Origin: a virus
Lineage: Duplodnaviria > Heunggongvirae > Uroviricota > Caudoviricetes
DNA: 5,900 bases
Virus record (IMG/VR): IMGVR_UViG_2526164613_000024
Coordinates: 1 to 5,900 of that record
Direction: 5' to 3' (one strand)
Of the stretch, positions 4,009 through 5,900 are shown in pieces; position 1 is the stretch's first letter, and every line of letters starts with the position of its first letter. A program made the translations under genes and the position numbers. Under the pieces are notes generated by a model that saw only the letters and a program-made list of their open reading frames with translations, was not told where the DNA came from and did no database searches.

Positions 4009-5900
4009 TCAGCTGATACTGATGCCTGCGGTGGCTTTCTTCATCACCACAACCAGCAAATCGCTGATACTTGCTGTGGGATACCAGTTATTCACCAGCC
4101 ATGCTGATACCGAAAACTCCAGCGTCATGTGACCGTGACCGGCAGGCATATCAATAACGCCACTGTAAATCAGCGTATTATCCAGCGCGGTACGGTTATA
4201 AATTTCAGCACCGTTTTTCCGCACTATCAGACGGCACGAGGAGTAAATATCAGTATGCTCTCTCTCATGTTTAGCGCCGCTGAATGCCACCGCCGGAATA
4301 ACAATTTGCCGGTCAAACGGCTGATCGTCATAAACCCTGACGGTAATGGTCCCTGATGGCCACCGCTCCGGTGCACGGGAATCCCGGGGGAAAGCTTTGC
4401 CCACTGTTTTAACGAGATCGCCTTCAATCTGGTTCGCGGACAGTTTTCCCAGAACCCGACAGTTCTCGTTAATCGTGACGTTGTTGAGCGTCCCGGAATT
4501 CGCATTCACGTTACCGCTGATATCAGCATTTCTTGCGGTCAGCCTGCCCTCCGGCGTCAGGGAAAACGTCGGGGGATTGGCGGACGAGGTGATACTCACC
4601 GCAAACAGCCGCTTCAGGAACACATCGTTCATGAACAACTGATTCCCCTGCGCCACAAATAACGGCGTGGTGTTGCCGTCCTACGGGTTAATCATCGCAA
4701 TACGGTCAGCCAGCAGCAGTATGTTGCTCAGGGGCTGGCCATCAGTATCCTCAATCCCCGCTCCAATACCGGCAACATAGGGTATGCCATTTTTTGTTTT
4801 CTGTACCTTCAGCATGTAAGTGCAGCAAGGTCATCATTTGTGTCCTTCTGCACGCGCTGTATCTGCTGTATGGTGGCGCTCTGGTCCTCCAGCGTTCTAC
4901 TGACCGTCTGTGTGATTTCATTGCGGGTTTCGGTGATGGAGGTCTTCATCTCCGCCATCTCATCCGCAAGCTGGCTGTTGTCTATCAGCTCCCACAGCCC
5001 CTGAGCCAGATGCAGTTTTCCTATTTTTTCCCGAAACAGCCCCAGATACCCTTCTGCATCATTGCTGGCCCGGCCACTGGCTTCCACAAAAGCAGATTTC
5101 CCCACCAGGTTGACGCTGCGCACGTAAAACCAGAAATCCTTCCCGGGCTTAATGTGCGGGCCGGATACACTCCACTGACTGCCGGTCCCCAGATAACGGG
5201 CAGAGGTTTCCACCTGAGATGTATCTGCGATTTTTGTCTCCGAAAACCAGAACTCAAACTGTACCGTCGGGTCATACACCGCAAGACGCGGGACCGCTGT
5301 TATCTGAAAATAGCCCGGTGTCAGCTCAATCGTGGCGGGTACCGCAGGTGCATTAATCCTGAACGTGGTGGTGGCCGGTTCCCCCTGCTGGCCATAACTG
5401 TTAATCGCCCTGACCGTCAGGGTGTATTCCCCCGGCGGCAGACCGCTGAAACGGTGCTCTGTATCCGCGGTGATGGCGGTGGTCACCAGACGGCTGTCCT
5501 GACCGCTTCCACTGGTCAGGCGCAGACTGAAGCGCACGCCCTTCACCACCCGCGGCGTGTCCCATTTCACCTGCGCCAGATACTGGCCGTCAGCTGCGCT
5601 CACCTCCACCGTCAGGTGCTGCACTGCCGGAGGGATGACGCTGTTCAGGGTGCCTGACTGCGGCTCAAAGCGGGCACCGTTATCCACGATGGCTTCTTTT
5701 TCCGGTACGTGCTGCACCGCCGTGATGGCAAAGGTGCCGTCCGTGTTTTCCCGGACGGAGACACAGCGGAACAGGCGACGGCGCAGTGACGGCAGGGAGA
5801 GTCCCCATACACCGTATGTCTCCACACCATCAGGCAGGGTGCTGACCTGTATCCGGTCCGGCGCGGGGTGTGCGGTGATGTCCACACTCACCGGCTTACC
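4009..5900 (-). pseudogene. J: Tail tip / host specificity protein J, 3' ~1.9 kb (5' end outside window); disrupted by a 1-nt frameshift near 4815-4822 and an in-frame TAG at 4683-4681
   Basis: Three pieces, all aligning colinearly with lambda J as I recall it: (i) 5900..4809, ending ...[13 protein letters not shown]; (ii) 4815..4684 in another frame, [44 protein letters not shown], then TAG; (iii) 4680..4009, [25 protein letters not shown]...[11 protein letters not shown]. Lambda has ...[23 protein letters not shown]...[29 protein letters not shown] at the corresponding place. Confidence 0.85.

Follow-up and report, generated by a model that had tools for sequence, protein, structure and literature searches.

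Results

Source of the window and identity of gene J

The sequence analysed here, hereafter the window, is a stretch of 5,900 nt that is identical, as its reverse complement, to a substring of AIFR01000025.1, a 12,063-bp contig in the draft genome of the E. coli O55:H7 strain DEC5B (GCA_000249515.2); the accession range AIFA-AIFZ corresponds to the 2012 DECA draft collection. The match begins at the second base of the contig, with window position 5900 lying 1 nt short of the contig end, inside gene J. By exact look-up in a collection of 15 billion proteins, the 44-aa ORF of the window was found as a sole record, EHV31358.1 (ECDEC5B_2637), and its frameshifted 200-aa Lom as another sole record, EHV31356.1; both are DEC5B proteins and both come from this one contig. 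As part of an overall explanation in which we have high confidence, the window takes in espJ and tccP at the cargo end of a lambdoid prophage adjoining yodB-zinT, together with its tail module, made up here of the tail-fibre genes, lom, and the 3' part of J. We take this espJ/tccP prophage to be the equivalent of Sp14/CP-933U.

Within the window, tccP (979-1569, + strand) encodes 196 aa with two 47-aa proline-rich repeats. The closed DEC5B genome has three repeats and 243 aa, one 141-nt tandem unit being collapsed in the draft, and PGAP labels this closed-genome gene 'partial' despite a clean translation to the stop. Between the convergent tccP and tail-fibre genes lies a hairpin resembling a bidirectional terminator, AAAACCGGAGCCGGACTCCGGTTTT, at 1655-1679. 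The tail-fibre gene (1965-3284, - strand) contains a long collagen-like Gly-X-Y region with G+C-rich repeats; these repeats give rise to an antisense ORF of 286 aa (2195-3055, + strand), called as a gene in the draft annotation (L006, 2847-3707), which is very likely spurious. Next comes lom (3339-3941, - strand), frameshifted in the draft to a 200-aa product, with the normal C-terminus of Lom appearing as a separate 40-aa ORF at 3343-3465.

The remaining part of the window, 4009..5900 on the - strand, holds 630 codons from the 3' part of a lambda gpJ-type tail-tip (host specificity) gene, as judged from Pfam domains, nucleotide identity, and the match to lambda J. The 5' two-thirds of J (~527 codons) are absent because the draft contig ends 1 nt past position 5900. 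A GTG at 5891 that opens a 360-aa ORF is not a real start; J is merely cut by the contig end. Searches of the closed DEC5B genome returned J matches in 7 to 10 places, indicating that the gene is multi-copy.

The Pfam domains Ig_J, Ig_J_second, Phage_Tail_Tip, and Ig_GpJ_C are all present across the three J fragments of the window (E values from 1e-42 to 4e-8), in the order Ig_J plus Ig_J_second in one piece, Phage_Tail_Tip in the next, and Phage_Tail_Tip plus Ig_GpJ_C in the last. At the nucleotide level, window J is 98.6% identical to the intact 1157-aa J of Stx2a_1447, which has the full domain series, including FNIII-A_GpJ and Phage-tail_3. The Stx2a_1447 protein is in turn colinear with lambda J (PDB 8iyk, 8xcg, and others), with residues 1-1156 matching residues 1-1131 of 8iyk chain J (E=0), and differs from it by a 25-residue insertion around residues 836-860. 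The Pfam series and this end-to-end match of an intact relative confirmed the assignment to lambda-type J made in an earlier note on this DNA. The tail operon order in closed DEC5B and in the O55:H7 strains USDA5905 and DEC5E is likewise that of gpJ: minor tail protein L, C40 peptidase, tail assembly protein, (sodC), J, Lom, and tail fibre. In this prophage family, a sodC gene encoding a Cu/Zn superoxide dismutase (L007:40299-40826 in closed DEC5B) separates tail assembly gene I from J and has the opposite orientation.

Thus, window J shows the hallmarks of gpJ in its domain series, its end-to-end similarity to lambda J, and its operon position. An uninterrupted full-length frame was not found, as codon 934 reads TAG both in the window and in four copies from closed genomes. 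Window J is a pseudogene of the lambda gpJ (TipJ) family.

The J frame is interrupted twice in the window

Read on the - strand from 5900, the J frame runs to ...DDLAALTC and then meets a TGA at 4811-4809. The next frame holds a 44-codon ORF (4815..4684) ending ...AMINP, followed by a TAG at 4683-4681, past which the same frame continues for 223 codons (4680..4012) to the J stop at 4011-4009. Both interruptions had been described in the earlier note, and both lie where it placed them. From this layout of TGA, 44-codon ORF, TAG, and 223 codons, it follows that J has a single change of frame and a single nonsense codon in frame. They fall at codons 888/889 (L888/Y889) and 934 of a 1157-codon gpJ homologue, the frameshift lying 45 codons upstream of the amber, and neither is a chance feature of a non-coding frame, since intact relatives have the same frame without an internal stop.

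The TGA (4809..4811, - strand) is reached solely through the frame change and is not itself a mutation; relatives read ...TAC ATG CTG AAG... at this place. The missing base had been assigned by the earlier note to 4815-4822, and within that interval the run at 4818..4819 is A2 on the + strand (T2 on the - strand), one base short of the A3 found in every relative examined; we judge this shortening to be a draft error (see below). The amber codon (4681..4683, - strand) stands in place of GAG (Glu934), as established by closed-genome comparison, and aligns with Ala908 of lambda J in the central fibre domain. The lambda J peptides quoted in the earlier note, including ...IDPANGNETPMFVAQGNQ... at the aligned position, agree with the lambda J alignment. 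Beyond the amber, the 223 codons at 4012..4680 (- strand) encode the distal central fibre and the C-terminal receptor-binding domain, with Pfam matches to PF09327 (partial) and PF12421 Ig_GpJ_C (E=1.5e-38), and are no longer translated within J. A 207-aa protein read from an internal ATG here is the same in the draft and in closed DEC5B.

A programmed ribosomal frameshift at the J site would also account for two open frames, and the single point in its favor is that the downstream frame is open for 44 codons. No slippery heptamer of the form X XXY YYZ occurs at GCA CTT ACA TGC TGA, however, and no relative shares the two-frame arrangement, all of them being in frame with T3. We give this reading virtually no credence.

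The frameshift is confined to the draft sequence

In the closed genome of the same strain (DEC5B, NZ_CP038389.1), the run is T3 on the - strand rather than T2, and J has no frameshift. This J is 3,474 nt long and is flagged 'internal stop', not 'frameshifted'. The closed genome was sequenced by PacBio RS II and Illumina (PMC9413875).

Over window positions 1600-5900, draft and closed DEC5B differ at only six sites, three deletions and three substitutions. The three deletions each remove 1 nt from a mononucleotide run of the draft: T4 against T5 at 1676-1679, C5 against C6 at 3459-3463, and A2 against A3 at 4818-4819. The first of these runs (1676..1679) belongs to the intergenic hairpin between tccP and the tail-fibre genes; T5 is found in closed DEC5B, USDA5905, and DEC5E, and T4 also occurs in 493/89 and Stx2a_1447, so that this variant is not unique to the draft. 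The second is a draft-only deletion in lom, where closed DEC5B and four other relatives have C6, and we conclude that the lom frameshift is also a sequencing or assembly artefact. The third is the J frameshift, with A3 in closed DEC5B, USDA5905, both DEC5E copies, 493/89, and Stx2a_1447; in USDA5905, the two DEC5E copies, and Stx2a_1447, the longer run leaves the J frame uninterrupted at this site.

The substitutions lie at 4237, 4897, and 5586. Those at 4237 (synonymous) and 4897 (K862R) are private to the draft, with C on the + strand where T is found everywhere else, and 33-mers centered on them had no match in 5,426 complete genomes. Both are probably consensus errors too. Paralogous J copies were considered as their origin, and simple mixing of copies is unsupported since the same 33-mers match no complete genome; a chimeric consensus is a possible source.

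The short run was also searched for more widely. A 61-mer centered on the frameshift matched 614 complete-genome records, 610 of them at 98.4% identity, and among those listed the match spans 62 nt, a base longer than the query; none of the 614 matched exactly. Likewise, none of the 5,426 complete E. coli genomes contained a 33-mer across the frameshift junction, designed so that every 28-nt seed must span the short run.

Discrepancies between the draft and the closed genome occur only within the multi-copy tail module, a 4.7-kb segment adjoining the contig end. Across the other 6,177 nt of the contig, which comprise part of tccP together with espJ and the single-copy chromosomal flank (yodB, zinT, and msrQP), the two assemblies are 100.000% identical. 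With six differences in 4.3 kb and none in the 6.2 kb next to it, the pattern is that of a poor consensus of a repeated region rather than of two cultures of one strain. The J deletion has the features of a homopolymer error: it lies in a run, is not reproduced in the same strain, is absent elsewhere, and clusters with other assembly defects. Against an artefact, a run of A2 versus A3 is shorter than expected for a classic pyrosequencing error. Use of 454 Titanium is documented for a contemporaneous study of the same year from the same centre, not for the DEC5B draft itself, and we presume that the DECA drafts were likewise made by 454 Titanium. Judging from these sequence comparisons, the 1-nt frameshift in J is almost certainly a sequencing or assembly error, namely, a homopolymer undercall in a low-quality, multi-copy stretch of the draft.

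It could be argued instead that both lesions were real in the stock sequenced for the draft, the J frameshift (and that of lom) having arisen recently after the amber had relaxed selection. The deletion is, after all, in the draft sequence itself. A dead J is expected to gather further lesions, and the DEC5B prophage is still decaying, with ISEc31 in V and a frameshift in rusA. The unrelated O157:H- strain 493/89 has a putative, independent J frameshift as well: the J gene of its tccP2 prophage (L004:5780-9254), annotated as 'frameshifted', carries a 1-nt insertion of its own at the equivalent of window position ~4738, about 80 nt from, and downstream of, the draft deletion site, where 493/89 itself has the longer run. 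Against a second mutation, however, stand the closed genome of the same strain without the frameshift, the junction found in 0 of 5,426 genomes, and a density of differences (six in 4.3 kb versus zero in 6.2 kb) far beyond stock divergence. Moreover, each of the three indels shortens a homopolymer in the draft, where the tccP repeat is collapsed as well. We consider a second mutation in the sequenced stock very unlikely and retain the draft-error explanation.

The amber codon is reproduced in closed O55:H7 genomes

The nucleotide at window position 4683 (- strand) is T in the draft, closed DEC5B, USDA5905, and DEC5E, and G in 493/89 and Stx2a_1447. Codon 934 is TAG in four J copies from three closed O55:H7 genomes (one each in DEC5B and USDA5905, two in DEC5E); each copy has a length of 3,474 nt, and the frameshift site reads T3 in all four. 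An exact match to the 61-mer around the amber was found in three complete genomes only, all of them O55:H7, and 557 records matched with one difference. The corresponding TAG-centered 33-mer was found at four places in 3 of the 5,426 genomes and was not found in other closed O55:H7 genomes (CB9615, RM12579, and others).

Public records already reflect the same interruption. In closed DEC5B, USDA5905, and DEC5E, the amber-bearing J genes are RefSeq/PGAP pseudogenes with the note 'internal stop'. In the record of JLK-2012, a DEC5E prophage that was sequenced independently and deposited in 2012 (JQ347801), J is split at the same codon into PP_71 (933 aa) and PP_72 (207 aa), the 933-aa product being identical to that of closed DEC5E. 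Exact searches of the protein collection with the 933-aa truncated products of DEC5B and USDA5905 gave no match; the DEC5E/JLK-2012 product was the only one found.

The codon is thus a sense codon in close relatives, and the stop is reproduced by independent sequencing in the same strain and in related strains. Its recurrence in the JLK-2012 record and in three O55:H7 genomes that were closed independently shows the amber to be genuine; as far as the sequences go, it is real and inherited. It is also already recorded in public annotation and is ordinary prophage decay. The earlier note had proposed two inactivating lesions in J, with assembly errors as the alternative. The lesion at codon 934 stands, since closed DEC5B has TAG and no sense codon at 4681-4683 at assembly level, while the frameshift, which is not in closed DEC5B, is where the suspicion of assembly error was borne out.

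The amber lies in orthologous prophages and in a probably recombined tract

In DEC5B, USDA5905, and DEC5E, the prophage that carries the amber is orthologous, and its cargo end, with espJ and tccP, borders yodB-zinT-msrQP. DEC5B and USDA5905 have the integrase WP_000533608.1 in common, and in USDA5905 the integrase end adjoins a tRNA-Ser gene next to mtfA. All head and tail genes of the USDA5905 prophage are annotated as intact except J; in DEC5E, the same holds throughout the stretch examined, which begins at the major capsid gene and extends as far as the cargo end. The DEC5B prophage has further lesions, as the tail-tube gene V is split by ISEc31 (L007:32299-34312 of the closed genome), and rusA and the SASA/DUF6645 esterase gene are frameshifted. 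Neither USDA5905 nor DEC5E has an interrupted V, and USDA5905 also has intact rusA and esterase genes, which lie beyond the DEC5E stretch that was compared.

The two amber-bearing J copies of DEC5E lie in the espJ/tccP prophage (L010:9662-13135) and in JLK-2012 (L003:3231-6704). The four amber copies share an identical 600-nt tract (J nt 2700-3300), and the other 300-nt bins of the gene differ by 1 to ~10%. An identical amber-bearing tract with diverging flanks suggests gene conversion between resident prophages, and such a mosaic is what recombination among resident lambdoid prophages, documented for O157 (PMC2669165), would be expected to produce.

A stop codon kept in several copies could also mean that the amber is not inactivating, with J made as two polypeptides (933 aa and a separately initiated one of ~207 aa), or rescued by suppression or read-through, and the allele maintained. 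The shared tract, identical in four copies with diverging flanks and copied into a second prophage, would fit such a reading, as would the lack of further stops in the 223 downstream codons. A functional split is hard to reconcile, however, with a break in the middle of a single Pfam fibre domain (PF09327, residues 871-998). No Shine-Dalgarno-like sequence stands at a useful spacing before the internal ATG (4632) or GTG (4656), and codons 935-973 are the same as in the intact J of Stx2a_1447, so that no new start has evolved. As to suppression, the tRNAs of the prophage (the only ones considered) are Ile, Arg, and Arg, none of them suppressors. Maintenance of the allele is at odds with the rarity of the TAG 33-mer (3 of 5,426 genomes) beside the 557 records with one difference in the 61-mer, the two relatives compared here reading GAG. 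Furthermore, the lack of further decay and the identical tract are equally expected of a recent mutation spread by gene conversion. Taken together, we regard a functional amber allele as extremely unlikely.

A designed two-gene arrangement of J was considered separately and rejected, given the break inside one Pfam domain, the lack of a ribosome-binding site, and the intact relatives that read through.

Discussion

Returning to an inactivating amber as the preferred explanation, which taken as a whole we hold to be highly probable, a single G-to-T transversion has converted Glu934 (GAG) to an amber codon (TAG), which the orthologous prophages of DEC5B, USDA5905, and DEC5E have inherited. Translation of J must end after residue 933 unless the codon is suppressed, and the amber removes the distal half of the PF09327 central fibre and the entire C-terminal PF12421 receptor-binding domain. 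Judging from the biology of lambda J and from the domain content, a 933-residue J would be unable to bind its receptor, and any particles would be non-infectious. The espJ/tccP prophage would then be immobilised unless a helper or recombination rescued it. In DEC5E, the tract with the amber appears to have been copied into the second prophage, JLK-2012. The amber is the lesion common to the DEC5B, USDA5905, and DEC5E prophages and is probably earlier than the other lesions of DEC5B.

Laboratory lambda J amber (sus J) mutants likewise carry a single amber codon in J. In contrast to these, the O55:H7 amber is natural and fixed in a resident prophage and was not selected as a conditional-lethal mutation. 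JLK-2012 (JQ347801 / NC_049942) has the same amber allele, with J deposited as two CDS, but is another prophage, with NleG/NleA cargo, a longer tape-measure gene, no sodC, and no frameshift. The espJ/tccP prophage is of the same lambdoid kind as Sp14 / CP-933U of O157:H7, with espJ and tccP at the tail-fibre end. Sp14 has been described as defective in several morphogenesis functions and as not packaged, and belongs to a 'defective prophage pool'; its host-specificity function in Sakai was scored '+', with the defects lying elsewhere (PMC2669165). In these three O55:H7 strains, on the other hand, J itself bears the amber.

The earlier note had also proposed a defective prophage that keeps its effector cargo. 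This picture is supported by the amber and, in DEC5B, by the ISEc31 insertion in V, not by two lesions in J.

It is conceivable that selection has retained the amber-J allele in the O55:H7 clade, either for tail tips without a receptor-binding domain or since a truncated J is useful, although we think this highly improbable. If true, such selection might, for instance, have served to keep effector-carrying prophages locked in position or to prevent self-adsorption.

The draft errors resemble those of other early drafts of multi-prophage E. coli, with 1-base shortenings at A, C, and T runs in a multi-copy prophage, a contig break, and a collapsed tandem repeat; they differ in that one of the runs is only 2-3 bases long. 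Pseudogene calls from such drafts in multi-copy prophage regions need to be checked against closed genomes.

No other morphogenesis defect is annotated in the USDA5905 prophage or in the portion of the DEC5E prophage that was examined, which makes the amber a candidate for the first lesion to have fixed the cargo in the chromosome. The amber raises no new question; it is a minor case, already annotated, of the way in which effector-carrying lambdoid prophages of the O55:H7/O157:H7 lineage may become immobilised.
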